Source: a virus. Taken from it: a stretch of 64,000 bases of DNA. The stretch lies in the IMG/VR virus record IMGVR_UViG_3300031088_000734, one strand, 5' to 3'. Shown here piece after piece: positions 965 to 57,513 of this stretch. The notes beneath the pieces were generated by a model. The model saw only the letters and a list, made by a program, of their open reading frames with translations. It did not search any database and was not told the origin of the DNA. Made by a program: the position numbers and the translations under genes. Within the stretch, counting starts at the first letter, position 1. Each line of letters starts with the position of its first letter.

Positions 965-1984
965 ATGACTTTCGAACGCGATCTTGATCAATTTTACACC
1001 AACAGTGACATCGCTCTTAAATGCTATGACTTACTGCAAGGTGTACTGGCACAAAACAATATCAAACCCACAATATGGTTAGAACCCTCAGCCGGTTCTG
1101 GTGCGTTCTTTTCTATTGTCTCTGGTAGTAAGCTTGGTATTGATATTGATCCGAAAATTGATAAAGTCGTCAAGGCAGATTTTTTGGAATACCCTTTGAA
1201 AGACGAAGGTTATATCACCATTGGTAATCCTCCATTTGGCAAGAATTCCAGTTTAGCCATCAAGTTTTTTAACAAATGTGCAGAAGTTTCCAAAGTCGTC
1301 GCCTTTATTGTGCCGAAGACCTTTAAGAAAGACAGTGTGCAAAAGAAGTTGAATAACCACATGCACCTTGCGTTTGAATGGGATGTGCCCAGCAACTCTT
1401 TTAACATTAAGAAAGAAATTGTGGATGTGCCTTGTGTCTTTCAAGTTTGGATTAAACAAGACATCGTTCGTCAAAGCACCAACAAAAGCTCGCTGGCGGA
1501 AGATTTCATCTTCACTAATAGAACCACGGCTAACATCGCATTTCAACGAGTAGGGGTAAGAGCTGGCACCATTAAGGGCTGTGCGGCGTTCCCTGAAATT
1601 GCTGATGCCTCACATTTGTTTATCAATACCTTACAACCTGATGTTGTGAAAATTTTAAAAGTGATTGACTGGTCAGCTATTAAGTTTAATACGGCTGGTA
1701 ACCCAAGTATTTCAAAGCGTGAATTGATCAGCGAATACACTCGATACAAAGCGAGCCTTGTGGGTATTATTGATGACTATCTGTTGTTTAATTTCGACGG
1801 CGTTATCTCTATTGTGTTCTTGGTGAATGGCAATGTGTTCAACATCAAAGTTGAAAACGATAACCTTGTGTTCCATGATGCTATTTTTAAAATTCAAGTC
1901 GGTAATGTTGACTTTAATTTGGTGAAAGCGGCTTATCTTGATTTCAAAAAAATGTTGAATGAAAACATCACTAAAAAAAGTTAA
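965..1984 (+). CDS. SAM-dependent N6-adenine DNA methyltransferase-like protein
   Basis: DQFYT, motif I LEPSAGSGAF, catalytic motif IV IGNPPFG. Confidence 0.85.
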   Translation: MTFERDLDQFYTNSDIALKCYDLLQGVLAQNNIKPTIWLEPSAGSGAFFSIVSGSKLGIDIDPKIDKVVKADFLEYPLKDEGYITIGNPPFGKNSSLAIKFFNKCAEVSKVVAFIVPKTFKKDSVQKKLNNHMHLAFEWDVPSNSFNIKKEIVDVPCVFQVWIKQDIVRQSTNKSSLAEDFIFTNRTTANIAFQRVGVRAGTIKGCAAFPEIADASHLFINTLQPDVVKILKVIDWSAIKFNTAGNPSISKRELISEYTRYKASLVGIIDDYLLFNFDGVISIVFLVNGNVFNIKVENDNLVFHDAIFKIQVGNVDFNLVKAAYLDFKKMLNENITKKS

Positions 1985-2002
1985 AATATTTGAAAAAAAA
2001 GG

Positions 2003-2031
2003 TTGCCTTACCGATAAAGTTTTGATAGAAT
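2003..2031 (+). promoter_or_regulatory. Sigma70-type promoter of tRNA-Cys
   Basis: TTGCCT-17-TAGAAT followed by leader CTACATTGAATGAG. Confidence 0.7.
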
Positions 2032-2206: not shown

Positions 2207-2740
2207 TTAATCTTTTGTTGTTTCTTCTGTCTCGAATGGATCAATTGCCATTATTATTTTTTCATCGTTGCTTTTAAGAACATCAGTTTTGACTACATAT
2301 TCTGGTTTATTCATTTCTTCATAAAGATAGTAAGCCACATTTCCTGTTATTCCCATATATTTTTTCATGTCGTATTCGATAACATGTTTTGCATTAATAA
2401 TGGCTTGATGATTTAGATCTGGGAATAGATCTTCTAATTTTCCTTTATAAACCATTTTATCGAACATGATTGCTTTCATATTTCTTAAATCATGAATAAC
2501 CATAATCAGTATGACCAATGGGATACTTACTGCAGCATATCCAACCATTAAGTAATAGTACCAGTTTGGTATTATTGACAGTGGAGCAAATAACACCATC
2601 ATCATGACCACCAAAGGAGCCATTAAAAAAAGAGTTAATTTAAATAATTTAGGATCTCTTTTTTTATCATATTCTGCTACATTTCTTTTGAAATATTCGA
2701 AATTTTTTATAAATTCTTTTTTTGCTAATTTCTCTTTCAT
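2207..2740 (-). CDS. Two-TM membrane protein, paralog of 6117..6641
   Basis: Shared KEF.[KE]NFE..K.N and F.KM.YKG...DLFP motifs flanking two hydrophobic helices. Confidence 0.75.
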   Translation of the reverse strand: MKEKLAKKEFIKNFEYFKRNVAEYDKKRDPKLFKLTLFLMAPLVVMMMVLFAPLSIIPNWYYYLMVGYAAVSIPLVILIMVIHDLRNMKAIMFDKMVYKGKLEDLFPDLNHQAIINAKHVIEYDMKKYMGITGNVAYYLYEEMNKPEYVVKTDVLKSNDEKIIMAIDPFETEETTKD

Positions 2741-10981: not shown

Positions 10982-11665
10982 ATGTTTAAACTAATGTGTA
11001 TTATATTTTCTAGCTTATTGATGACGGGGTGTGCTATTAACAACATTGGTAACACAGTGAATCGAAAAATGGATAATTATTCAATTATTGATACCATTAC
11101 AGAACCACAAAGCAAGCTGGATTACATTCGTTTTGAATCACGTAAAACGGAAGCTGCAGACACCTATTTCTCAGTATCGAGTGGTGTTCAGTGGAATGAT
11201 GATTATGTGGTGGCTTTAAAAACAACTGAAAGTGCAAATGATAAGTTTGCGTGTCTTGATGAATGTGGTGTTGTGTTTATTAAGAAACATAAACAAGCAC
11301 CGGTACCGGAATGGCGTCATCGCATCAGTAATGAACCTGTTACCTTGTTAGGGGCTTCGGACGAAGTTGATGAAACCTTTGTTTATAAATCAATGGATAT
11401 AGATGTTTCTGCTATCAGTGCAGACATCACACCATATCCAGTATATGCGGTACCAACCACCATTGTAGAAAACAATGCAGAAGGTGGCCCAGTCTATGGC
11501 ACTGATGGTAAAGTGATTGGTATCATTTCTGGTTTTGTGAATACTGTTGATGATACAGGTGAACGTTTGACTTATCTGGATGGTTTTGATTCTGGTTATT
11601 TTGCTTTGTATATTCCTTATAGTGAATTGATTAGAGCTTGGGATTTAGTTAAGCCAACTAAGTAA
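10982..11665 (+). CDS. Lipoprotein, trypsin-like fold, probably catalytically inactive
   Basis: Lipobox LMTGC; SGVQWNDDYVV and GGPVYG..G.VIGI; nucleophile position is E (NAEGGP) and no catalytic His. Confidence 0.65.
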   Translation: MFKLMCIIFSSLLMTGCAINNIGNTVNRKMDNYSIIDTITEPQSKLDYIRFESRKTEAADTYFSVSSGVQWNDDYVVALKTTESANDKFACLDECGVVFIKKHKQAPVPEWRHRISNEPVTLLGASDEVDETFVYKSMDIDVSAISADITPYPVYAVPTTIVENNAEGGPVYGTDGKVIGIISGFVNTVDDTGERLTYLDGFDSGYFALYIPYSELIRAWDLVKPTK

Positions 11666-43972: not shown

Positions 43973-44968
43973 ATGGCAAAAATCTTAACCGGCGATAGAC
44001 CAACAGGTTCACTTCATCTTGGGCATTTTGTAGGTTCCTTACGCAACCGTGTTGAACTGCAGCACTTGCACCAGCAAACCATTTTGATTGCTGATAATCA
44101 GGCATTGACTGACAATATGGGTAATCCAACGAAAGTCCGTGATAACGTCATTGAAGTTGCCAAAGACTATCTAGCATGTGGTATCGATCCCACCAAGACC
44201 ACGATTTGTGTCCAGTCTCATCTGCCAGCGATTGCCGAATTGACGTTACTGTATCTCAACCTTGTCACTGTCTCCCGTTTGGAACGGAATCCTACTATTC
44301 GTGATGAGATTAAAGCAAAGAACTTCGAACGAAGTATTCCAGCAGGCTTCTTAGCCTATCCAGTGGCACAAGCAGCAGACATTACTGCATTCAAAGCCGA
44401 TCTTGTTCCAGTCGGTGAAGACCAGCTTCCATTGATTGAGCAAGCCAATGAAATCGTTCACAAATTGAACACTCAGCTAGGTTTTGAAATTGTTCCTGCT
44501 ATCAAAGCTATTACTTCGACAGTCGGAAGACTACCAAGCCTTGATGGTAAATCTAAAATGAGCAAATCGCTAGGTAATACGATTAGTCTATACGCAAGCA
44601 TGAAAGACATTCAAAAGGCCGTCAATTTGATGTTTACCGATAGCAACCATCTTCGTGTTGAAGATCCCGGTCAAGTCGAAGGCAACGTAGTGTTTACTTA
44701 CCTTGATGCGTTTGACCCCGATGTCAATGAGGTCGCTAACTTGAAGGAATTCTATCAGCGTGGTGGTTTAGGTGATGGCACTTTGAAAAAGCGTCTGGTT
44801 GGTGTTTTAGAAACTGTTATTGCTCCTATTCGAGAACAAAGACTGCTGTTAAATACTCAGCATGATTTTGTACTTGATGTGTTGAAGCAGGGCACATTGA
44901 AAGCACAAGCCGAAACCCATCAAAATGTCAATGAGATTAAAGACGCTTTTGGTTTTTTCAAATTTTGA
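43973..44968 (+). CDS. trpS: Tryptophanyl-tRNA synthetase (TrpRS II type)
   Basis: ILTGDRPTGSLHLGH (HIGH), YPVAQAADI, VPVGEDQ, KMSKS. Confidence 0.97.
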   Translation: MAKILTGDRPTGSLHLGHFVGSLRNRVELQHLHQQTILIADNQALTDNMGNPTKVRDNVIEVAKDYLACGIDPTKTTICVQSHLPAIAELTLLYLNLVTVSRLERNPTIRDEIKAKNFERSIPAGFLAYPVAQAADITAFKADLVPVGEDQLPLIEQANEIVHKLNTQLGFEIVPAIKAITSTVGRLPSLDGKSKMSKSLGNTISLYASMKDIQKAVNLMFTDSNHLRVEDPGQVEGNVVFTYLDAFDPDVNEVANLKEFYQRGGLGDGTLKKRLVGVLETVIAPIREQRLLLNTQHDFVLDVLKQGTLKAQAETHQNVNEIKDAFGFFKF

Positions 44969-48232: not shown

Positions 48233-48332
48233 ATTTTCTTGAAAAACACTTGCCATAATGTCTAAAATTAGGTATTATGGCTATCTCAACAACAAACACA
48301 TATTTTATTAATTATTTTAAAGGAGAATGCCC

Positions 48333-48347
48333 ATGTCTATTATTTAA
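48333..48347 (+). CDS. Leader minigene MSII-stop
   Basis: TTGCCA-17-TATTAT promoter; AAGGAG SD 7 nt before ATG TCT ATT ATT TAA. Confidence 0.5.
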   Translation: MSII

Positions 48348-48368: not shown

Positions 48369-48698
48369 ATGAGCAGAACAATCCGCCGCAAAAACGAAAA
48401 GAACAATTTCGGCAAACTCTTCTTGCTGAACGAGAAGGACTTGGACGAAAACGGGCTGGTCGAGTGGCACTGGAACAAAGCAATGGTCGGTTTGACCTTG
48501 GAAGAAGCAAACAAGAAAAGAATGCAGTGGTTCCACTCCTGCAGCGGCCCACGTTTCGATTACTGCCCCGGAAAAGCTTACCGTCAGGAATACCGGGCGA
48601 AAAGCAAGCAGCAACTCAGGGAGCAATTGAACGTGCTCGATGATTACGAAGCCGTAGCCATCGACAAGCTCTGCAACGATTGGCGTTACTGGATGTAA
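48369..48698 (+). CDS. Basic protein with MSRTIRRK N-terminus
   Basis: GAGGA SD; GC-richer codons than neighbours. Confidence 0.8.
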   Translation: MSRTIRRKNEKNNFGKLFLLNEKDLDENGLVEWHWNKAMVGLTLEEANKKRMQWFHSCSGPRFDYCPGKAYRQEYRAKSKQQLREQLNVLDDYEAVAIDKLCNDWRYWM

Positions 48699-48752: not shown

Positions 48753-49154
48753 ATGAAGAAAATGATTGTGTATCGGCTGGAAAATAGCCAAGGTATTGGT
48801 CCGTTCCGTGGTGGTCATCGTGATGAAGCTGAATTGCTGAAAGGGCATCTGGGAATTCGTCAGTGTCTTGTTGAACGCGGACGTATGAAGTCAAGAGCGT
48901 TTAAGAAGTTGTCTAATTCTGGTTGGAATTGTGCTTGGAGTTCGGAAGTTGATTTTAACGAATGGATGAACAACAAAACCGAGTTTTTTGAAAAGCTTGG
49001 TTATTTCAAAGTAGCCTATCAAGTTGACCAGTATAAATTGTGCGATGAACAGCAGCTTTGCCAGTATGATGAAGTCTTGGAAGACTATGTGTCTTTCGAT
49101 ATTGATGGCTTTCAGGTCTTTTTTAATCCGAAGCGTGCAGTAAAGCTTAAATAG
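48753..49154 (+). CDS. Hypothetical phage-type protein (VYRLEN..G.GP motif)
   Basis: AAGGA SD; possible ART-like R..S..pattern, unconfirmed. Confidence 0.7.
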   Translation: MKKMIVYRLENSQGIGPFRGGHRDEAELLKGHLGIRQCLVERGRMKSRAFKKLSNSGWNCAWSSEVDFNEWMNNKTEFFEKLGYFKVAYQVDQYKLCDEQQLCQYDEVLEDYVSFDIDGFQVFFNPKRAVKLK

Positions 49155-49167
49155 TTAATAAAAAAGC

Positions 49168-49196
49168 TTGTGATGGGTCATTGATTGTTGTATAAT
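49168..49196 (+). promoter_or_regulatory. Promoter P1 of minigene array
   Basis: A-tract then TTGTGA-17-TATAAT with TGn. Confidence 0.75.
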
Positions 49197-49257
49197 GACC
49201 TCATTGAAAAAACGAAGAAACAAAAAAGATTATAGAAAAAAGAAGACGAAAAAAAGC

Positions 49258-49286
49258 TTGTTCAGGTTTCAAAATGGTGGTAAGAT
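49258..49286 (+). promoter_or_regulatory. Promoter P2 of minigene array
   Basis: A-tract then TTGTTC-17-TAAGAT with TGn. Confidence 0.6.
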
Positions 49287-49343
49287 AAGCTTCCTTAGAC
49301 AAACAACTAGCACACTAATGAAGGCCCGAGAGGTGAGCCAAAA

Positions 49344-49349
49344 ATGTAA
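49344..49349 (+). CDS. Start-stop minigene (M-stop)
   Basis: GAGGTGA-7nt-ATG TAA. Confidence 0.55.
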   Translation: M

Positions 49350-49451
49350 AATCTAGACTTAAATTAGATAACCATATTATAGAATTTGATAAGATTAAAA
49401 CAAACATTAACCGCTAGATATATTAGATTAAGTGCCCGAGGTGAACTACCG

Positions 49452-49463
49452 ATGCAGATTTAA
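49452..49463 (+). CDS. Minigene MQI-stop
   Basis: GAGGTGA-7nt-ATG CAG ATT TAA. Confidence 0.6.
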   Translation: MQI

Positions 49464-49564
49464 TTCAACTTATAGACTATTAATGTATAATATTGAATGA
49501 ATTTAGCAACACATTAAACATCAACCACTTGATAATTAGAGAAAGTGCCAGAGGTGAGCTACCG

Positions 49565-49576
49565 ATGCAGAACTAA
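49565..49576 (+). CDS. Minigene MQN-stop
   Basis: GAGGTGA-7nt-ATG CAG AAC TAA. Confidence 0.6.
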   Translation: MQN

Positions 49577-49693
49577 TTCAAATTATAGATAATCTAATAT
49601 TGAATGAGTATAATGATGTATAGGAATAGATCAACACGGTGTGGTTTTTTTAAGTGACAATTTAACGTCCTCCACCAAATTGATAAGCAACAC

Positions 49694-49722
49694 AAAAAGA
49701 CCTCGTTATGAGGTCTTTTTTT
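49694..49722 (+). terminator. Terminator closing the minigene transcript
   Basis: AAAAAGACCTC-GTTAT-GAGGTCTTTTTTT. Confidence 0.85.
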
Positions 49723-49797
49723 ATGTCTTCAAAAAAGATAGAGAGTTGACAAATATATTAAAAGGTATATTTGTACTAGCACACATCGGAGCGATTT

Positions 49798-49944
49798 ATG
49801 ATCTTACATTTCTTTCTTCATACCAAAAATCATCTTGTACTTAAACTGATTATTGCTACCATTGGTTTATTTTCGATTGTTTTTATCGGTCTACTGTTTA
49901 TTGCATTGGTTTTGCAGATACTATTAGCCATTTATCCTGTTTAA
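49798..49944 (+). CDS. 48-aa membrane peptide
   Basis: GGAG SD; MILHFFLHTKNHLVLKLIIATIGLFSIVFIGLLFIALVLQILLAIYPV. Confidence 0.6.
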   Translation: MILHFFLHTKNHLVLKLIIATIGLFSIVFIGLLFIALVLQILLAIYPV

Positions 49945-50014
49945 ATGGTTGCAATCCAGTCTTTTTTTGGTTATTATATAGATGTAGAAACTATTTCATA
50001 TTAAGGAGGTTCCT

Positions 50015-50035
50015 ATGTCTGGCGATGCGTCTTAA
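50015..50035 (+). CDS. Leader minigene MSGDAS-stop upstream of frr
   Basis: TTGCAA-17-TATTAT promoter (49949..49977); TAAGGAGGT SD 4 nt before ATG. Confidence 0.55.
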   Translation: MSGDAS

Positions 50036-50121
50036 CTCATAATTTTTTTATGTAACCAATATTGCACTGAATAGTCATCTATTCGGTGCTTTTCTTATTT
50101 CAAAATTAAAAGGATATTATT

Positions 50122-50676
50122 ATGACCAATGTCAAAAAAGAAACGCAAAAGGAACTGGCTAAAGCTATTGAATCTTTAAAGATAACCATAGCCAAAATCA
50201 GAACAGGTCGAGCACATCCTAGCCTGCTTGATTCCGTCATGGTTGAGCACCTTAACGTCAAGACTCCGATTAAACAAATGGCAAGCATTGTTGTGGAAGA
50301 TGCTAGAACACTCAAAGTAGTGGCTTTTGACAACAAATTGATAGGTGCTATTACCAAAGCCATCTTGAATGCAGGATTGGGATTAAATCCATCCAATACT
50401 GGTGTGGCTATCTATGTACCTTTGCCTGTCATGACTGAGGATACTCGCAAGATGTATATCAAACAGTTACGCCAGAGCATTGAAAATTCCAGAATTGTGG
50501 TTAGAAATCTACGTCGAGATGCGTTCTCTGTTTACAAGCGTCAATTGAAAAACAAAGAAATCAATGAAAATGACGAAAGACGACTCAGTAACTCCATTCA
50601 AAAAGAGATTGATGAAACGATGGCGGTCATTGATGGATTACTCGAACAAAAAGAAAAAGAAATTATGGCGATTTGA
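50122..50676 (+). CDS. frr: Ribosome recycling factor
   Basis: IRTGRAHPSLLD, NAGLGLNPS, P..TE..R, VRNLRRDA, IQK..D. Confidence 0.95.
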   Translation: MTNVKKETQKELAKAIESLKITIAKIRTGRAHPSLLDSVMVEHLNVKTPIKQMASIVVEDARTLKVVAFDNKLIGAITKAILNAGLGLNPSNTGVAIYVPLPVMTEDTRKMYIKQLRQSIENSRIVVRNLRRDAFSVYKRQLKNKEINENDERRLSNSIQKEIDETMAVIDGLLEQKEKEIMAI

Positions 50677-50756
50677 TGTTGATCTTGTTCGTTATATTTG
50701 CTATAATAGCTCTGTTGTAAAAATTCGATAACAGCCTTCTTAATAAAGGTGTTTCG

Positions 50757-50783
50757 ATGTGGAAAGCAGGTAATCAACCATAG
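50757..50783 (+). CDS. Minigene MWKAGNQP-stop
   Basis: TTGATC-17-TATAAT promoter (50679..50707); AAAGGTG SD 5 nt before ATG. Confidence 0.4.
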   Translation: MWKAGNQP

Positions 50784-51081
50784 TTTAGCCTTGAGTTCTA
50801 GGTTACTTGCTTAAAAAAATCAAAGGTGATGTCGCCGCTTAGGGATCTTTTGTGGATGACATGAAGTAACAAAATGAGAGGCTGTCCAGAGAGAGGCAAA
50901 ATCGAAAAAAGAAACAGCAACATGCGGCTAGTCCAGATGAATGTTGTGCTACCATCCCCGACACTTCCAACGAAAAGAAGGTCAAACTGGATAATACAAC
51001 TTGATTGTTTCCACCATGAGAGCTTGTGTGTCAGGTCTTTATCAAATGGCATTCATCGCCGCCTGATTTTTTATTCATAAG

Positions 51082-51113
51082 AAGGCCACTAGATTTGTCT
51101 AGTGGTCTTTTTT
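51082..51113 (+). terminator. Intrinsic terminator
   Basis: GGCCACTAGA-TTTG-TCTAGTGGTC-T run. Confidence 0.85.
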
Positions 51114-51179
51114 ATTTACTTTTTTCTTAAAATATGATACACTTATTTCGCTTAAATGTATTGATATTGGAGAACATCA

Positions 51180-51953
51180 ATGAGTTTTCAAGAAACCCTT
51201 CAACGAAACATAAATCATACCTTCTCGGTAGACTTTCATGTTGCCATCAAAAAGAAATTGGTGATGTTGTTGAAAAAGGTTTGTAAAATAGATATTTCTC
51301 ATTTTGATGAGAATGACCCCAACTACTTTCAATTCGATGAAACGTATCAACACCGTCATCGTATTAGGTATGACTTCAACTACACTGGGGATGATGTCGG
51401 TGAAGCCGAAGCTCATATCACTCTGGATGGTGGACGCTTCTTTGTAACTTTTTTGTTTTATAAAAAGGAAAAACATCCATCCTTGCCTGCTGGATCGCAT
51501 TGTGTCGATATAGATGTTGATCCTAAACTACGATATCGGTTTGCTAAGTTTTCAACACGATTTGATTTTGGTTGGCAATCCGCCGACATTCGTGAGCGTG
51601 GATTTTTCTTGTTTACAAAAGACATGGACAGTAGAATGAATGTGACGACATCTATTAAATGTTTTACGCAAAACCCCCGTAAAAAAACAAAGATATTAAG
51701 AAAAAAAGATTTACCAGCAGTATTCTTTGAAAATAATCATCATTTTTATGACCGATTGAATAATCTATTAGACTACTGTGAAATGCGACCAAAAGTCTTT
51801 TACGAAGTCTTTGATGAATATCCTGATCATGCCACGTTATCTAAGGGTAGTGATTCTATTACAAGTTTTTTGACGTTGTTTCATGAACAATATCAAATTG
51901 ATTTAAAAACTCTTGATTCAAAGCTTCTCTTGCTTGAAATGGACACTATATAA
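51180..51953 (+). CDS. Family B paralog 1
   Basis: F.EYP.H....FL.LF..QY...L...LLLLEMDTI. Confidence 0.8.
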   Translation: MSFQETLQRNINHTFSVDFHVAIKKKLVMLLKKVCKIDISHFDENDPNYFQFDETYQHRHRIRYDFNYTGDDVGEAEAHITLDGGRFFVTFLFYKKEKHPSLPAGSHCVDIDVDPKLRYRFAKFSTRFDFGWQSADIRERGFFLFTKDMDSRMNVTTSIKCFTQNPRKKTKILRKKDLPAVFFENNHHFYDRLNNLLDYCEMRPKVFYEVFDEYPDHATLSKGSDSITSFLTLFHEQYQIDLKTLDSKLLLLEMDTI

Positions 51954-51954
51954 T

Positions 51955-52752
51955 ATGACCAGTATTCATACACAATTACTGATGAGCAAAAATGTTCATG
52001 AGTTTGATGATGATCTTAACAATCAAATTATTGATAAACTTTTACACATATTCCAGTCTATCTTTGATGAAGATTTATCAACTGAACAGAATACTTTTAG
52101 AGTAAAGCCAGTTTCATTTGGTATGGCTATTCATGTTGAATACATGTTCAAATATGGAATGGTTTCCGTGATGGCAAAAAATAATGACATGACAGTTTCT
52201 TTTGTTTTTGATAGAGATAAATGCGATGATCTTTATATTCCATTTAACTGCACACGGTGCGAAGTTCAGGTTGATGATGATTTAAACTTTGAAAAAGCAG
52301 TGTTTAATTTTTATGCAACCATCAATAAACCTAAAATTGAAACTAAATACGCTTCAAAATATGTCGGTTCAGTTTTGGTTTCAGATCCACACCATGCGAC
52401 TATTGATATTCGTCGGACGATAGATAAACAACGGAAAGTTTCTACATGGATTACCTATGACAATTTTTATTCAAAACTGGGAGACTATACTGAATTAACT
52501 ATGTCAGAATTGCACAAGGTATACTTTAATCCAGATAAGGATTTTGAAGATTTCTTTGTTAAAATAATGATGACATTAAATACCCGACCACAACAATTTT
52601 CATCGGTCTTTACTGAATATCCAACGCATAATCAAATTATGCACAACAAAACAGCAGCGGTTAACTTTTTGAATTTGTTAGTCGATGACTATTTTAATCG
52701 TTTTCATTTGTTGGAAGCTAACCTGTTATTACTTGATATGCAGGTCATATGA
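51955..52752 (+). CDS. Family B paralog 2
   Basis: Ends LLLLDMQVI. Confidence 0.8.
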   Translation: MTSIHTQLLMSKNVHEFDDDLNNQIIDKLLHIFQSIFDEDLSTEQNTFRVKPVSFGMAIHVEYMFKYGMVSVMAKNNDMTVSFVFDRDKCDDLYIPFNCTRCEVQVDDDLNFEKAVFNFYATINKPKIETKYASKYVGSVLVSDPHHATIDIRRTIDKQRKVSTWITYDNFYSKLGDYTELTMSELHKVYFNPDKDFEDFFVKIMMTLNTRPQQFSSVFTEYPTHNQIMHNKTAAVNFLNLLVDDYFNRFHLLEANLLLLDMQVI

Positions 52753-52753
52753 C

Positions 52754-53539
52754 ATGGCTACACTCTTAGATAGAATTTCAGAAATAGAAAAAGAACAGCT
52801 TCCTGATGCTCTTGATTTTGACATTTCAAATAAATTAAAAACATTGTTGAATATTACTTTTAATGAAGACTTATCAGACCCGGATGATCTGAATTGCATT
52901 GAACTTGTAGAAGTATTTATCTATCAAAATAATGAACAAGTAGACATTTCCTATTGTTTTAAATTTGGTGTAGCTTTAATTTCTTTTCATCGTGATCTTG
53001 GCATGTTGAAAGTTTTATTTCTATGTCATCAAAATAGTCATGATTTATATAATTCTAATGTCAATTATGAAGTAGTTGTTGATGACGAGCTTAATTTTCA
53101 AAGTTTCTCATTCTGGCGATTATTTGAATTCTCGAAAGACTTTAAAGATAATAATAAATATACATCATCATGGTCTAACTTATTATTTGACATTAAAACG
53201 GATAGATTTTTAAATGTCAGTAAAAATCTTCTATATCGGAATGAAGAAATGTATACAATCTCTGCAGATGATAAAAAAAATCTTTTTGATTATGGCCTAA
53301 ATCCTGTTTTTTATCTTTCTAGCCGACACTTTGATGAGTTATTGTTAAAATTTTTAAAATATTGCATGAAAAACACTCAACATTTCTATTCTATATTTCC
53401 TCATTATCCAAATCATATTTGCTGTATGGAATCGCTCAGTAAAACAGTTGACTTTTTAAATATTTTTTGCAACGAATATAGAGACAATTTGACAATTTTG
53501 GAGTATAATATCCTACTACTTGATATGCAGGGCATTTGA
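52754..53539 (+). CDS. Family B paralog 3
   Basis: Ends ILLLDMQGI. Confidence 0.8.
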   Translation: MATLLDRISEIEKEQLPDALDFDISNKLKTLLNITFNEDLSDPDDLNCIELVEVFIYQNNEQVDISYCFKFGVALISFHRDLGMLKVLFLCHQNSHDLYNSNVNYEVVVDDELNFQSFSFWRLFEFSKDFKDNNKYTSSWSNLLFDIKTDRFLNVSKNLLYRNEEMYTISADDKKNLFDYGLNPVFYLSSRHFDELLLKFLKYCMKNTQHFYSIFPHYPNHICCMESLSKTVDFLNIFCNEYRDNLTILEYNILLLDMQGI

Positions 53540-53540
53540 A

Positions 53541-54305
53541 ATGACTAACATCTATGAGGCAATGGTACACTTTAAAAAGACCAAAGAATCCCTATGGGGG
53601 ATCAGTCCATTGATTAGCTCCAAACTTGTGCCCTTATTTTATCAAGCTACTGGCATAGAGCTTCTGGGTGATGAACAGCACTTCACCAACAATATCAGTG
53701 TTTGTGGTTTGGAAGTGGCGATGGATTACTTCTTTAAATACGGCTCAGCCACGTTGAGTTTGAAAAATGATGAACTAGAAGTAGGGTTTTATTTTATTAA
53801 TAAACCAGATGATGTTTATCCGACCCCTTTTAATGCCAAACAATGCAGGGTATATATTGATCGTGATTTGAACTTTAAACACGCTATTTTTCATTATCAT
53901 GTTAGCTTTTCAAAAGCTCTTCTAAATAATTACGATCAAAGTGCTGTCTATGCCGCCATTAAAATTCAAAAAATCATTGAACAAGGTTCAACAAGAACTA
54001 CTGTTGGCTATCAAAACCTGCTTTCTAAGGCCAAAGAGTATACATCACTTCATGATAAAGGGTTGGATCAGCACTTCTTTGAAACTGATGTTCAATTTGA
54101 ATTGTTTTTTGTTAAGTTCATGGAAGCTTGTTCTAAACGACCTTACCAATTCTATGAACTATTTCCAGAATATCCAAGCTATGTTGATTTTATGGAAAAG
54201 ATGCACAAAGCTGTTGAATTCTTGAACTTGTTCAATTTCCAATACATTAATCAGTTTGATGTGTTAGAATCTAAACTTATCTTACTTGATATGCAGGCGA
54301 TTTAA
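53541..54305 (+). CDS. Family B paralog 4
   Basis: Ends LILLDMQAI. Confidence 0.8.
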   Translation: MTNIYEAMVHFKKTKESLWGISPLISSKLVPLFYQATGIELLGDEQHFTNNISVCGLEVAMDYFFKYGSATLSLKNDELEVGFYFINKPDDVYPTPFNAKQCRVYIDRDLNFKHAIFHYHVSFSKALLNNYDQSAVYAAIKIQKIIEQGSTRTTVGYQNLLSKAKEYTSLHDKGLDQHFFETDVQFELFFVKFMEACSKRPYQFYELFPEYPSYVDFMEKMHKAVEFLNLFNFQYINQFDVLESKLILLDMQAI

Positions 54306-54306
54306 T

Positions 54307-55113
54307 ATGAAGACAATTTATGAGCAATTGATGGAATTGAAAGATGTCGAAAGTCTTCATAGATCGGAAACTACTTTATTTTTAGGTGCCGATTGTATTA
54401 TTGGCGACGATGTTATTGATGATATTTTAGTTAACGAGAAGCTTACAGAGTTGTTTTACAAAGTTTACAGTATTCAGAAACCTTATGAGCAACCTTTGTT
54501 TGAAAGAAATATATCATCTATTGGCCTTCAAATAAGTGTCGCTTATAATTTTCAATATGGTTCAGTTCACCTTGCGATTGAAGACAATAAATTATTAGTG
54601 ACTTTTTATCATAACGAGGACTGGTTTAAAGCTCCATTTGGCACAGACCGTTGTATTGTTTCTGTAGACCATGATTTAAATTTTATTCAATCTGAATACT
54701 CTACTTATTTTGCATTTTTAAACAGTATTTGGTATGAAAATGGTGGTTATGGCGGTTACAATCATATGCAAATTAAACAAGTGACTAATGCCTCTGGAAC
54801 ACGCAATCAACTTGCTTTTTGTCACTCTACTGATGATGATGATTTGCTTAAAGATGTTCAAGAAGGTAAACTGGATAAACGTTTTTCGACACCCAACGTT
54901 GAATTGGAAAACACATTTTTTCAAATTATTGATTTTGTGACAGATAAACCTCACGAATTTTATGCCATTTTTCCTGATTACCCTAGTTTTTCAGATTGTG
55001 TTGATAGCTCTGATCGTGTCATTGATTTTGTTAACTTGTTTGTTGAACAGTATTTTAATGATAATGAAGGCTTACAACAACACTTGTTATTACTTGACAT
55101 GCAGGCGATTTAA
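54307..55113 (+). CDS. Family B paralog 5
   Basis: Ends LLLLDMQAI. Confidence 0.8.
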   Translation: MKTIYEQLMELKDVESLHRSETTLFLGADCIIGDDVIDDILVNEKLTELFYKVYSIQKPYEQPLFERNISSIGLQISVAYNFQYGSVHLAIEDNKLLVTFYHNEDWFKAPFGTDRCIVSVDHDLNFIQSEYSTYFAFLNSIWYENGGYGGYNHMQIKQVTNASGTRNQLAFCHSTDDDDLLKDVQEGKLDKRFSTPNVELENTFFQIIDFVTDKPHEFYAIFPDYPSFSDCVDSSDRVIDFVNLFVEQYFNDNEGLQQHLLLLDMQAI

Positions 55114-55114
55114 T

Positions 55115-55864
55115 ATGACTACACTTTATAAACAGTTTACTAAAGTTAGAACAGCCAAGAAAAAATGGTTGTATACGCCAGATGTTCAACAAAAACTGAT
55201 TGAACTCTTTAAAATCGTTTGTAACATTGACCTTTCTACTGAAGAAACTCCATTTAAACCCGATGGTGCATCGTTCGGCATGGAAATTGTGTATAACTAT
55301 GCATTTAAGTATGGTAGAGTTTTTGTCCAAACGGCTAAAACAGAAATGCAAGTTACGTTTATTATTGATAATCCGCATGAACTAATTATTCCATTTAGTG
55401 TTTCAAATCGTTCACATACTTGTACAGTTAAGGTCGATCATGACTTGAATTTTATAGAAAGTCGAGTTAGTTTTTACAGTTCTTTCTCAAATAGAACGTT
55501 GGATAAAGATCGTTCTGGTTATGTTATCTTTTGTTTTGAAAATATTAATGATGGCACTAAAACCTTTAATAATGTTTCTTACAGTTACAAGTCGGAAAAC
55601 TATATAGATTTAACGCCCTATGGCCTTATCAATTACTCAACACCTAATAATGACTTTGAACAACTACTAATCGAGTTCATGATTTTCTGTTCAGAAGAAC
55701 CAGAAGAATTTTATAATATTTTTGTTGAATATCCAACCTACGAAGAACTTACTAACAGTGTTGATAATTTGGTTGTTTTCTTAAATCTTCTCAAACAACA
55801 ATACATTGAAAATAGAGAACTTTTGCAATCCCGTGTGTTGTTATTAAATATGCAGGCCATCTAA
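55115..55864 (+). CDS. Family B paralog 6
   Basis: Ends VLLLNMQAI. Confidence 0.8.
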   Translation: MTTLYKQFTKVRTAKKKWLYTPDVQQKLIELFKIVCNIDLSTEETPFKPDGASFGMEIVYNYAFKYGRVFVQTAKTEMQVTFIIDNPHELIIPFSVSNRSHTCTVKVDHDLNFIESRVSFYSSFSNRTLDKDRSGYVIFCFENINDGTKTFNNVSYSYKSENYIDLTPYGLINYSTPNNDFEQLLIEFMIFCSEEPEEFYNIFVEYPTYEELTNSVDNLVVFLNLLKQQYIENRELLQSRVLLLNMQAI

Positions 55865-55866
55865 TT

Positions 55867-56631
55867 ATGACCACTTTCTACGATAGACTTTTAATCGCAA
55901 AAGATTCAACTGATCTACTTTCCGATATGTTAGACGAAATTAGCCAAAAATTATTGCAATTACTGTATCAATCTTGTCATATTGATTTGTCTCACATTGA
56001 CGAACCTTTCGTGGCAAATCATGTTGGTGTTGATAATGACTTACATATTCAGTACAACACTATTTTTGGTGGAGCTAACCTTTCATTATTATCTTCTACA
56101 CATGAGTTAGAAGTTGAATTTGATTTTTCAAATGAATATCGCACCGAATATTATTACAAGTCAAAATATTGCCTTCTAGAAATTGATAACGACATGGTAT
56201 TAAAAAAATCTAGATTTAATAATTCTTTTCCATTTTCAAAGGCTGTCTTGGATAACGCTTATGCCAGTCATATTTTTTCTTCTCTTCGTATTGATACTTA
56301 TGTAGACTATCTATCGAATGTTTCTAAACATTTTAGCTATGAAAATTACCTTTATCATACATTTCCAAAAGATATGCGAGCTTATGGTTTGAGTGCTTAT
56401 TTCTATCAGACTGACAAATCTTTTGAAGACTTATTAGCCACTTTCCTAATTCATGCTGGCAATCATCCTTTTATCTTTTACGAGTTCTTTAACGAATATC
56501 CAAGCTATCTTGACTTAATGAATGGCATTGAACACATGATTCAGTTTCTTGAACTGTTTAAAACCCAATATATTAATGATCCTGATTTACTTAAATCAAA
56601 AATATTGTTAATTGAAATGAAGTTAATTTAA
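55867..56631 (+). CDS. Family B paralog 7
   Basis: Ends ILLIEMKLI. Confidence 0.8.
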   Translation: MTTFYDRLLIAKDSTDLLSDMLDEISQKLLQLLYQSCHIDLSHIDEPFVANHVGVDNDLHIQYNTIFGGANLSLLSSTHELEVEFDFSNEYRTEYYYKSKYCLLEIDNDMVLKKSRFNNSFPFSKAVLDNAYASHIFSSLRIDTYVDYLSNVSKHFSYENYLYHTFPKDMRAYGLSAYFYQTDKSFEDLLATFLIHAGNHPFIFYEFFNEYPSYLDLMNGIEHMIQFLELFKTQYINDPDLLKSKILLIEMKLI

Positions 56632-56694
56632 TAGACAAAATTGACATTAAAGTCATTTTAAATTAAACTTTCAAAACAACTATGAGGTGTTTGA

Positions 56695-57513
56695 ATGCTG
56701 GAACGTATATTTAAAGCAAAAACTGATTATGACAAAGCTATCTTGGACAAAGTATCTATACCCGACTACAAACCAAAGATTACCTTCTTTACGGGGTCTG
56801 GTATTTCTCAGGAGAGCGGTTTGGAGACGTTTCGTTCCAGTGATGGCCTTTGGTGCAACCATCGTGTTGATGAAGTGGCAACAGCCAAAGCTCTTCAAAA
56901 AGACTTCAAGAAGGTAAACAACTTTTTTAATGACAGGCGTAAAGAAGTGATGGCTGCTCAACCTAATCGTTCTCATTACATCCTTAAAGAACTCGAACAA
57001 TACTTTGAGGTCATTGTAGTGACCCAAAACGTCGATGATTTGCATGAACGAGCTGGTAGTTCAAAGATCTATCATTTGCACGGTGAAATCATGCGTTCTC
57101 GCCCTGTCGGCAACTCAAACGTGTTCTACGACCAGAAGAAAGACATTAAGGTTGGTGACAAGTGTATGTTAACTAGAGCACAAATTAGACCTCATATTGT
57201 TTTATTTGATGAGATGTTGGACGATGGTATCTTATCAGATGCTCGAAAGCACATCAGAGAGTCCGATGTGTTCGTGGTGGTGGGTAGCAGTTTACAAGTT
57301 GAACCTGCAGCTTCTCTGGTGGTTGAAGGCTTTGGCTTACGTGATTTTGTATTGGTCGATCCAAATACTGTCTTCATGAAATACAATGCCAACTATGTGC
57401 ATGTTAAAGAAAATGCATCAGTAGGACTTGAAATGATGTTGCCTCAGTTAATTATTAAAGCTGGTTTACTTCAAGAAGAATTCAAAGAAAACAAAGAAAG
57501 ATTGAAAACATAA
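56695..57513 (+). CDS. cobB: Sir2-family NAD-dependent deacylase (CobB-like)
   Basis: FTGSGISQESGLETFR, TQNVDDLHERAGS, HLHGE, RPHIVLFDE, VGSSLQVEPAA. Confidence 0.9.
   Translation: MLERIFKAKTDYDKAILDKVSIPDYKPKITFFTGSGISQESGLETFRSSDGLWCNHRVDEVATAKALQKDFKKVNNFFNDRRKEVMAAQPNRSHYILKELEQYFEVIVVTQNVDDLHERAGSSKIYHLHGEIMRSRPVGNSNVFYDQKKDIKVGDKCMLTRAQIRPHIVLFDEMLDDGILSDARKHIRESDVFVVVGSSLQVEPAASLVVEGFGLRDFVLVDPNTVFMKYNANYVHVKENASVGLEMMLPQLIIKAGLLQEEFKENKERLKT

Follow-up and report, generated by a model that had tools for sequence, protein, structure and literature searches.

We analysed a 64-kb window comprising the first 64 kb, on the minus strand, of a 179-kb IMG/VR record (IMGVR_UViG_3300031088_000734; record class provirus, estimated 55% complete), and focus here on positions 49160-49722, upstream of the ribosome recycling factor (RRF) gene frr. 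This region is a transcription unit with its own predicted promoters and terminator and holds no conserved open reading frame (ORF). Our best explanation, in which we have moderate confidence, is that it encodes a non-protein, ribosome-engaging minigene RNA made of three tandem ribosome-landing modules. Each module is predicted to offer an unstructured AU-rich stretch, a Shine-Dalgarno sequence (SD) of 7-8 nt whose strength far exceeds that of the SDs in front of the element's genes, an AUG at a distance of exactly 7 nt and a stop after 0-4 codons. Ribosomes would start on every unit only to terminate or drop off immediately, so that the yield would be ribosome engagement and no protein. A family of homologous units, their invariant positions and an early stop specific to one reading frame were established directly, as were the framing of the array by promoters and a terminator and the way in which units have spread, as modules, to tRNA operons and a 3' untranslated region (UTR).

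The array lies on the plus strand and opens with an A-tract and promoter P1 (49160-49196; TTGTGA-17-TATAAT, hexamers at 49168-49196), which scored 10 of 12 matches in a consensus scan. Both P1 hexamers are retained in the related loci L031 and L002, where the spacer has diverged. A purine-rich leader of the AAGAAGA type, read directly, follows at 49203-49257; the related arrays at L006, L044 and L048 likewise begin with such a leader. Behind a second A-tract lies a weaker promoter, P2 (49258-49286; TTGTTC-17-TAAGAT), which shares the direct repeat AAAAAAGCTTGT with P1. Its position matches that of the lone promoter of L044 and L048 (GCTTGCCA-N17-TATTAT). P2 fell below the threshold of the consensus scan and hence was not listed by it. 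The array ends at 49694-49722 in a strong intrinsic terminator found by a terminator scan (12-bp stem at 49694-49720, plus T-run). In L031 this position holds a different hairpin, and the L044 and L048 arrays also finish in a hairpin and T-run. An earlier sequence-only reading of this DNA had proposed that two promoters (49168 and 49258) and a terminator (49694) frame a stretch with no long ORF, and both points were confirmed: the sole sizeable ORF (53 aa, 49195-49356) was rejected, as a stop interrupts it in the close relative L002. Two other arrangements were also rejected. One promoter per unit is not workable, as the TATAAT-like hexamers within units do not lie at a usable distance from a -35 element in L006, L044 and L048. 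A minus-strand RNA mimicking the anti-SD was dropped because promoters, terminators and neighbouring genes and tRNAs all fit a plus-strand reading.

Within this frame lie the three repeats of about 110 nt that had been described from sequence, each at its expected place: GAGGTGA, exactly 7 nt, ATG, and TAA after 0, 2 and 2 codons. Unit 1 (49291-49398; nhmmer 2.6e-15) has its SD at 49330-49336 and an ATG (49344-49346) directly followed by TAA (49347-49349), a bare start-stop encoding M. In L031 the SD of this unit is altered to GGGGTGA and ATG TAA is retained. Unit 2 (49396-49509; 1.1e-22) has its SD at 49438-49444 and encodes MQI, with ATG at 49452-49454, CAG ATT, and TAA at 49461-49463. Unit 3 (49512-49615; 5.5e-21) has its SD at 49551-49557 and encodes MQN, with ATG at 49565-49567, CAG AAC, and TAA at 49574-49576; a variant encoding MQS (AAC to AGC) in L024, L026 and L027 retains the stop. 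Units 2 and 3 are 87% identical across 55 nt and unit 1 is more diverged.

Counting both strands, the 179-kb record has only seven GAGGTGA heptamers, three of them in the array. The heptamer precedes none of the 168 long ORFs of the record, which mostly carry four-base AGGA or GGAG cores. Because GAGGTGA is this rare, and because the ATG frame closes early in 39 homologous units, the array is more than a chance arrangement. RNAalifold predicted no pairs at all across 20 units, so SD and AUG are expected to be accessible. The absence of predicted pairing and the rarity of the heptamer relative to the element's genes together point to open, unusually strong ribosome-binding sites. The idea that the units are themselves structured RNA was dropped, given the RNAalifold result and a z-score of only -1.7 when 49285-49725 was folded on either strand; only the 3' hairpin is structured.

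Altogether, 39 distinct units make up a family that is represented in the lineage of the window, in giant phage records of 290 and 437 kb, both near-complete, and on ten metagenome contigs. A search with the unit profile returned a diverged five-unit array in the 290-kb record (L006). The pattern derived from the window and L006 arrays then identified three more sites in the same phage (L042 twice, L043), arrays elsewhere in the L003 and L004 genomes (L044, L047) and one in the 437-kb record (L048). Run over five whole records, a covariance-free model found 3, 10, 3, 3 and 3 units (ten in the 290-kb record, three in the 437-kb record), none without the SD-ATG-early-stop features. A tandem-pattern scan of metagenomes added ten loci, the other 50 of its 60 loci being unrelated tandem repeats. 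In species genomes, a scan with the core pattern gave at least 120 single matches, mostly in GC-rich bacteria; none was confirmed by the unit profile among the matches listed. Four candidates from the viral scan (L041, L045, L046 and L049) were set aside as chance matches.

Across 20 aligned units from six records, the only invariant columns are G..GGTG, one C two bases past the SD, and the ATG. In all individually read units but one, GGTGA is followed by exactly 7 nt; the exception is unit b of L048 (GGTGG, 6 nt). In the 39 units the ATG frame runs for 0-4 sense codons (mean 1.4), whereas the other two frames run for means of 7.5 and 9.3 (Wilcoxon 2e-8 and 7e-8). The stop is TAA in 34 units, TGA in three and TAG in two, and 17 peptide/stop classes occur; since both vary, the stop seems to be retained as a function and not as a fixed sequence. 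Peptides in the tally are M, MQ, MP, ME, MK, MQI, MQN, MQS, MQH, MQF, MPY, MVY and MQHKL, and an MR unit in L201 lies outside it. Bare start-stops make up six of the 39 units (four of the 24 first examined). Start-stops occur as ATG TAA in unit 1 and its counterparts in L031, L006 and L048, and as ATG TGA in units of L201 and L210. Even units that fall outside the search patterns (window unit 1, L006 v1, L043 a, L044 c, L047 b and c, L048 b and c) have the SD, ATG and stop. The sequence-only reading held that homologous repeats keeping their flanks but losing ATG and TAA would count against a minigene. We found the reverse in units recovered by profile, where flanks diverge and SD, spacing, ATG and early stop are kept. 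That evolution retains a translation start and an immediate stop in these units is well supported by the comparison of homologues.

Next, the array was followed at the frr site, using RRF-anchored loci from IMG/VR and public assemblies; RRF-based locus searches of IMG/VR returned only three relatives. L002, L031 and L038 carry the array ahead of frr. It is missing at that position in L003, L004, L030, L032 and L033-L037, whose RRFs are 83-85% identical and thus as close as that of L031. The L031 array body is 95-99% identical to that of the window, compared with 70-78% for frr and the upstream gene and about 58% for the 5' leader. From the pattern of presence and absence, and from the high identity of the array body relative to its flanks, the array at this site is judged to be an insertion/deletion polymorphism, a self-contained cassette that comes and goes. 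L002 has two units, the second a chimera of units 2 and 3 that is the apparent trace of a copy lost via unequal crossover. Several Logan contigs break in assembly within the repeated core. Upstream of frr in the more distant relative L029 (2040-2900; RRF 66%) lies a stretch that by eye resembles a Leu-like tRNA, which neither ARAGORN nor the Rfam gathering scan called. With it come about 800 nt of G+C-richer, ORF-free sequence that may be structured RNA, in one or several pieces.

The 5' part of the unit core (GCCCGAGAGGTGA; window 49320-49345) matches the first 13 nt of tRNA-Leu(UAA) of L197 (802-815) at 12 of 13 positions. None of 300 shuffles did as well, and 45 pairs were tried; L224 (1823-1840) was also compared with the core. 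A tRNA-derived origin is possible for the conserved GUGCC...GGUGA stretch. This resemblance, the copy number that shifts by unequal crossover (three units in the window, two in L002) and the movement of the array inside its neighbourhood would all suit a repeat acting at the DNA level or for itself: iterons, centromere-like protein-binding sites or a functionless tRNA-derived intergenic repeat, with SD, ATG and stop incidental. We think this most improbable, because units follow the direction of transcription and close early in one frame only. Furthermore, the invariants are exactly the SD and ATG whilst flanks decay, and the stop switches among TAA, TGA and TAG. Iterons and centromere-like sites in particular fit poorly with a period of 100-118 bp, a lack of dyad symmetry and the absence of any replication or partition gene among the neighbours scanned.

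The downstream part of the transcript differs between arrays. In the window it is a conserved hairpin domain of about 55 nt at 49630-49684 on the plus strand (AUCAA/UUGAU, GGUGNGG/CCUCCACC, GRC/GYC), defined by covariation. In six sequences, 96% of its cells are paired, compared with 33-54% when partners are slid, and four pairs have changed on both sides, including A-U to G-C at 49657/49668. The hairpin occurs in the window, L002, L024, L031, L044, L047 and L048, and the L006 array has an unrelated 3' domain of about 190 nt instead. In L047 (11567-11680), an L004-type genome, the hairpin domain is partly duplicated, with TTAACGCCCTCCACCAACTGATTAAAGCAAC present twice. Pairing of the unit SD with the CCUCCACC strand of the hairpin was considered and rejected, as at most four contiguous pairs could be formed by hand.

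At every locus examined, units point in the direction of local transcription, and they are either flanked by a promoter and a terminator or embedded in tRNA operons. In L042 and L216 they directly follow tRNA-Arg(UCU) and tRNA-Leu(UAA) and precede the terminator. A unit follows tRNA-Leu in L197 and tRNA-Met in L205; units precede tRNA-Arg and tRNA-Leu in L201 and L233 and tRNA-Arg alone in L043, and lie between tRNAs in L224. Near 7711 of L042 a single unit sits between the stop of a protein gene and its terminator, in the 3' UTR, and near 11300 of the same locus the only cargo of an array is a bare terminator. Directly downstream of the unit/tRNA-Arg operon of L043, the 290-kb record encodes a small signal recognition particle (SRP) RNA (1923-2018, minus strand; Rfam RF00169, 58.7 bits). 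Between two units of that locus (about 2400-2480, minus strand) lie two SD-led eight-codon ORFs for related acidic peptides, MKEEFDDI and MKDEHDDL.

These contexts bear on a different role, in cis, in which units would load ribosomes on untranslated transcripts (non-coding RNAs, tRNA precursors, 3' UTRs), shielding them from RNases or Rho or guiding their processing, the stop serving to avoid wasteful translation. The modularity of the units fits such a pad, as do their placements 5' of, 3' of and between tRNAs and in a 3' UTR. So does the variety of 3' cargo: the covarying hairpin in the window, L044 and L048, the 190-nt domain in L006 and a tRNA in L043. Meydan et al. have also argued that a stop right after the start can neutralise an initiation site (10.1101/520783). 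Multi-unit arrays whose cargo is a short hairpin or a bare terminator (the window; L042 near 11300) nevertheless look excessive for protection, and a start-less stabiliser SD would need no invariant AUG, fixed 7-nt spacing or G-ending second codon. AU-rich, C-poor RNA, moreover, is a poor substrate for Rho. We hold a ribosome pad acting in cis as possible, though less probable than not.

The codon after the ATG follows a strict rule. It ends in G in all 33 units in which it could be counted (CAG 24, CCG 6, and GAG, AAG and GTG), and also in L201, where it is CGG. The third codon ends in T or C in all units with two sense codons. In the element's long ORFs, G-ending codons account for 14% overall, CAG for 22% of Gln codons and CCG for 8% of Pro codons. 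The last sense codon, on the other hand, varies widely (CAG, CAT, AAC, ATT, CCG, TAC, TAT, AGC, CTT, TTT, TCT, CAC, GAG and AAG). The earlier suggestion that the array drains specific tRNAs (fMet, Gln-CAG) is thus not borne out as a family trait. A codon-class-selective form of the idea survives, because the second codon always ends in G. Ribosome binding alone does not appear to explain this rule, which is compatible with a sink for tRNAs reading codons that the phage avoids.

The rule also fits the preferences of the A-site nuclease RelE, first reported as specific for CAG, UCG and UAG, which prefers to cut after C and before G and has a higher kcat/KM for codons ending in G (PMC5224514). 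Both the tRNA sink and RelE are leads and not findings. A decoy would draw on the same features: the core GUGCY-N-GAGGUGA-RCY-N4-AUG-NNG would mimic an initiation region and titrate a translational repressor or bait a RelE-type A-site RNase. Its repeated sites on a single RNA resemble those of sponge RNAs, its bases are conserved beyond SD and AUG, and the second codon, NNG and mostly CAG or CCG, agrees with the RelE preference for CAG and G-ending codons (PMC5224514). A repressor site needs no in-frame stop, however, a stoichiometric bait counters a catalytic nuclease poorly, no candidate binding protein is linked with the arrays, and the ATG TAA and ATG TGA units have no NNG codon at all. 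Such a decoy seems to us highly unlikely. A bolder proposal, which we put forward as doubtful, is that AT-rich giant phages use the arrays as a codon-class-selective weapon, with each unit placing a G-ending codon (CAG, CCG, GAG, AAG, GUG, CGG) of a class largely shunned by the phage genes in the A site directly after initiation. Mass translation of units could trap tRNAs that read host-preferred codons as short peptidyl-tRNAs, or the units could be bait for RelE-type A-site nucleases. Either way, phage translation would be spared, helped by the phage tRNAs (Arg-UCU, Leu-UAA) of the same operons.

Returning to the minigene RNA, its ribosome engagement could act in two ways. In trans, which is slightly favoured, the RNA would be present in abundance and would occupy the host translation machinery as a sink or in futile cycles, drawing on initiating ribosomes, fMet-tRNA, release and recycling factors, and tRNAs for G-ending codons that the phage avoids. 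This preference is based on the strong promoters, the several copies, arrays that carry next to no cargo and, as precedents, minigenes (PMC2490762) and CreT RNAs (PMC8501985), both of which act by being translated and sequestering tRNA. In cis, ribosome loading would protect or process co-transcribed RNA; this is nearly as likely, given how the modular units have come to lie in tRNA operons and in one 3' UTR. A decoy or a DNA-level or selfish repeat is less likely than either, because the early stop is confined to one frame and the units are asymmetric with respect to strand.

Four observations weigh against the minigene RNA as proposed. The contrast in identity between the array body and its flanks in the window and L031 could be explained by recent transfer and not constraint. 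Single units in 3' UTRs and units behind tRNAs fit a cis role or a selfish repeat equally well. Bases are conserved beyond the SD and AUG, namely GUGCY before the SD, RCY after it and ATTAGATAA-like motifs on both sides; ribosome binding alone does not explain them, and they could mark a protein-binding or processing site. Finally, the variable last sense codon argues against a one-tRNA sink.

The sequence-only reading had further proposed that the array works together with the element's own RRF, RRF as such being a factor that promotes peptidyl-tRNA drop-off (PMC10192219). A true RRF gene does begin 402 nt past the terminator, at about the distance of 400 bp given before (frr, 50122-50676, plus strand; Pfam RRF 4.7e-50), and its nearest cellular relatives are in Pseudomonadales (about 52% identical). 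However, the array is missing from this position in close relatives. The genomes of L003 and L004 instead have a homologous array, complete with this 3' hairpin, directly behind the tryptophanyl-tRNA synthetase (TrpRS) gene, about 3.5 kb upstream of frr, and in L048 the array precedes another gene of the same neighbourhood. No frr was found in the 290-kb and 437-kb records (estimated 96% and 98% complete), both of which carry arrays. Pth was likewise absent from the four records searched for it (the 290-kb and 437-kb records, the window's and that of L003).

Furthermore, frr has a promoter region, leader peptide and attenuator hairpin separate from the array. Its leader (50003-50089, plus strand) lies outside the array and comprises a strong SD (AAGGAGG, 50003-50009), an upstream ORF (uORF) encoding MSGDAS (50015-50035) and a terminator-like hairpin (50064-50089) just before the frr SD. 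Across nine loci (window, L002-L004, L020, L024, L030-L032), the six-codon peptide is kept as MSGDAS or MSSDAS through synonymous TCT/AGT and GGC/GGA changes, and the hairpin shows a compensatory A-U to G-C change. The leader and hairpin are a candidate translation-sensing attenuator of the recycling-factor gene. Between the array and frr, a hydrophobic ORF of 48 aa (49798-49944), kept with diverged sequence in L004, L020, L024 and L031, probably encodes a small membrane protein. On this comparison, frr appears to be a neighbour in a translation-gene neighbourhood and not a required partner, and a dedicated minigene-RRF pair is not supported. Of the module first proposed, the dedicated, previously undescribed minigene RNA is supported and the RRF pairing falls away, and with it the tempting idea of the array and phage RRF as a toxin-antidote-like pair.

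Single units have clear precedents. Lambda bar and engineered minigenes of 2-8 codons share the SD, AUG, few codons and stop on a phage transcript, and their product is ribosome and peptidyl-tRNA traffic (PMC2490762); RRF-stimulated drop-off underlies their toxicity (PMC10192219). All three window units and all 39 family units have the SD, start, very short ORF and in-frame stop that define a minigene, and the bare start-stops are shorter than any classical one. Lambda bar has single two-codon units ending in the rare AUA codon and is active only when Pth is limiting. By contrast, the arrays have 1-5 tandem units per transcript, a much stronger SD, fixed 7-nt spacing, 0-4 variable codons with a G-ending second and a variable last codon, and form a conserved family found also in tRNA operons. 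The scarce-tRNA last codon of toxic minigenes (AUA, AGA/AGG) is not a feature of the units, in which no single last codon is kept.

In CRISPR-associated CreTA modules, the naturally occurring small RNA CreT likewise combines an efficient ribosome-binding site with a tiny ORF; it acts through its own translation, and the effect tracks translation efficiency (PMC8501985). CreT, however, contains a single ORF in which two rare codons (AUA or AGA) stand side by side, and its repressor is the CRISPR-like CreA RNA together with Cascade (PMC8501985), whereas the units here are tandem and some are bare start-stops. None of them has consecutive rare codons. No CreA-like repeat-spacer partner was seen in the 0.5-1 kb or so read on each side of the arrays of the window, L006, L042-L044 and L048, in which no CRISPR or cas search was run. 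Start-Stop sites found by Ribo-RET have an AUG then a stop behind an SD-like sequence, exactly as in unit 1, and bind ribosomes in vitro and in vivo (bioRxiv 10.1101/520783). They are single, lie inside protein-coding genes and slightly modulate the host ORF (bioRxiv 10.1101/520783). The array is not intragenic and out of frame but intergenic, with its own predicted promoters and terminator, and its tandem units, mixed with versions of 1-4 codons, sit on a dedicated non-coding transcript.

Two further types of RNA are comparable. Sponge RNAs of the CsrB/RsmZ type carry a repeated protein-binding motif (a GGA loop), and Gram-positive mRNAs can have 5' stabiliser SD elements, which are SDs with no start codon. 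Both resemble the array, in having many copies of a short single-stranded site on a promoter-to-terminator RNA or in binding ribosomes or 30S subunits without productive translation. In the array, though, the repeated site is a complete initiation region with AUG and stop, and it has no Rfam match. At gathering thresholds, Rfam found only tRNA-Cys in the window. Searched at E up to 10, 49100-50130 gave only sub-threshold matches driven by terminators, and eight related loci gave only tRNAs and the one SRP RNA. Literature searches likewise turned up no account of such tandem minigene RNAs from large phages. The tandem family in large phages is thus undescribed in Rfam and the literature searched.

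Minigenes have so far been mostly single curiosities such as lambda bar, laboratory constructs or one-ORF RNA toxins such as CreT. Here, the largest phage-like elements encode, beside tRNAs, a tRNA synthetase, an SRP RNA and RRF, a whole conserved family of natural RNAs whose building blocks are start-stop modules in tandem. If ribosomes load on the units, giant phages would own an RNA tool acting on host translation through occupancy or futile cycling, a new layer on top of the known phage-encoded translation genes. The family yields clear sequence rules in SD strength, 7-nt spacing, NNG second codon and immediate stop. The present analysis adds a test of whether the array and frr are linked, the rule that second codons end in G, the covariation in the 3' hairpin, and the frr leader with its attenuator.

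The element itself is AT-rich (window G+C about 33%), and few of the ORFs scanned had Pfam or PHROGs matches. These include a class I Trp/Tyr-type tRNA synthetase (43973-44968), a cation efflux protein and a Sir2-like protein. The single tRNA of the window is tRNA-Cys. BLAST of the array region against deposited phage genomes gave no matches. RRFs identical or near-identical to that of the window occur on contigs of 0.83, 1.28 and 1.86 Mb, which suggests that the element either is integrated into a far larger entity or was assembled together with one. Contigs of 0.68-1.86 Mb and about 33-36% G+C (those behind L033, L038, L197, L203 and protein P0001) carry near-identical loci, and the 150-290-kb 'proviruses' are pieces that IMG/VR cuts from them. 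These contigs may be prophages in low-GC hosts or much larger phage-like elements.

In every relative, the 109-aa gene that lies two genes upstream (48369-48698) comes after a promoter and a tiny uORF with a strong SD (window 48320-48347; L003 about 1975-2010; L004 about 1780-1800; L048 about 1375-1405). The position of this uORF is kept and its sequence is not (MSII, MSKFLR, MSIL, MLRF). Downstream of frr, a promoter at 50679-50707 (10/12 matches, extended -10) is followed by about 450 nt with no convincing ORF before the next gene, and 50679-51180 may hold another non-coding RNA. Beyond it, at 51180-57513, about eight same-strand ORFs of 254-300 aa lie back to back or overlap. Those scanned had no Pfam or PHROG match, except for the last (56695-57513), which is Sir2-like. 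By appearance the run may be a tandem paralogue family.

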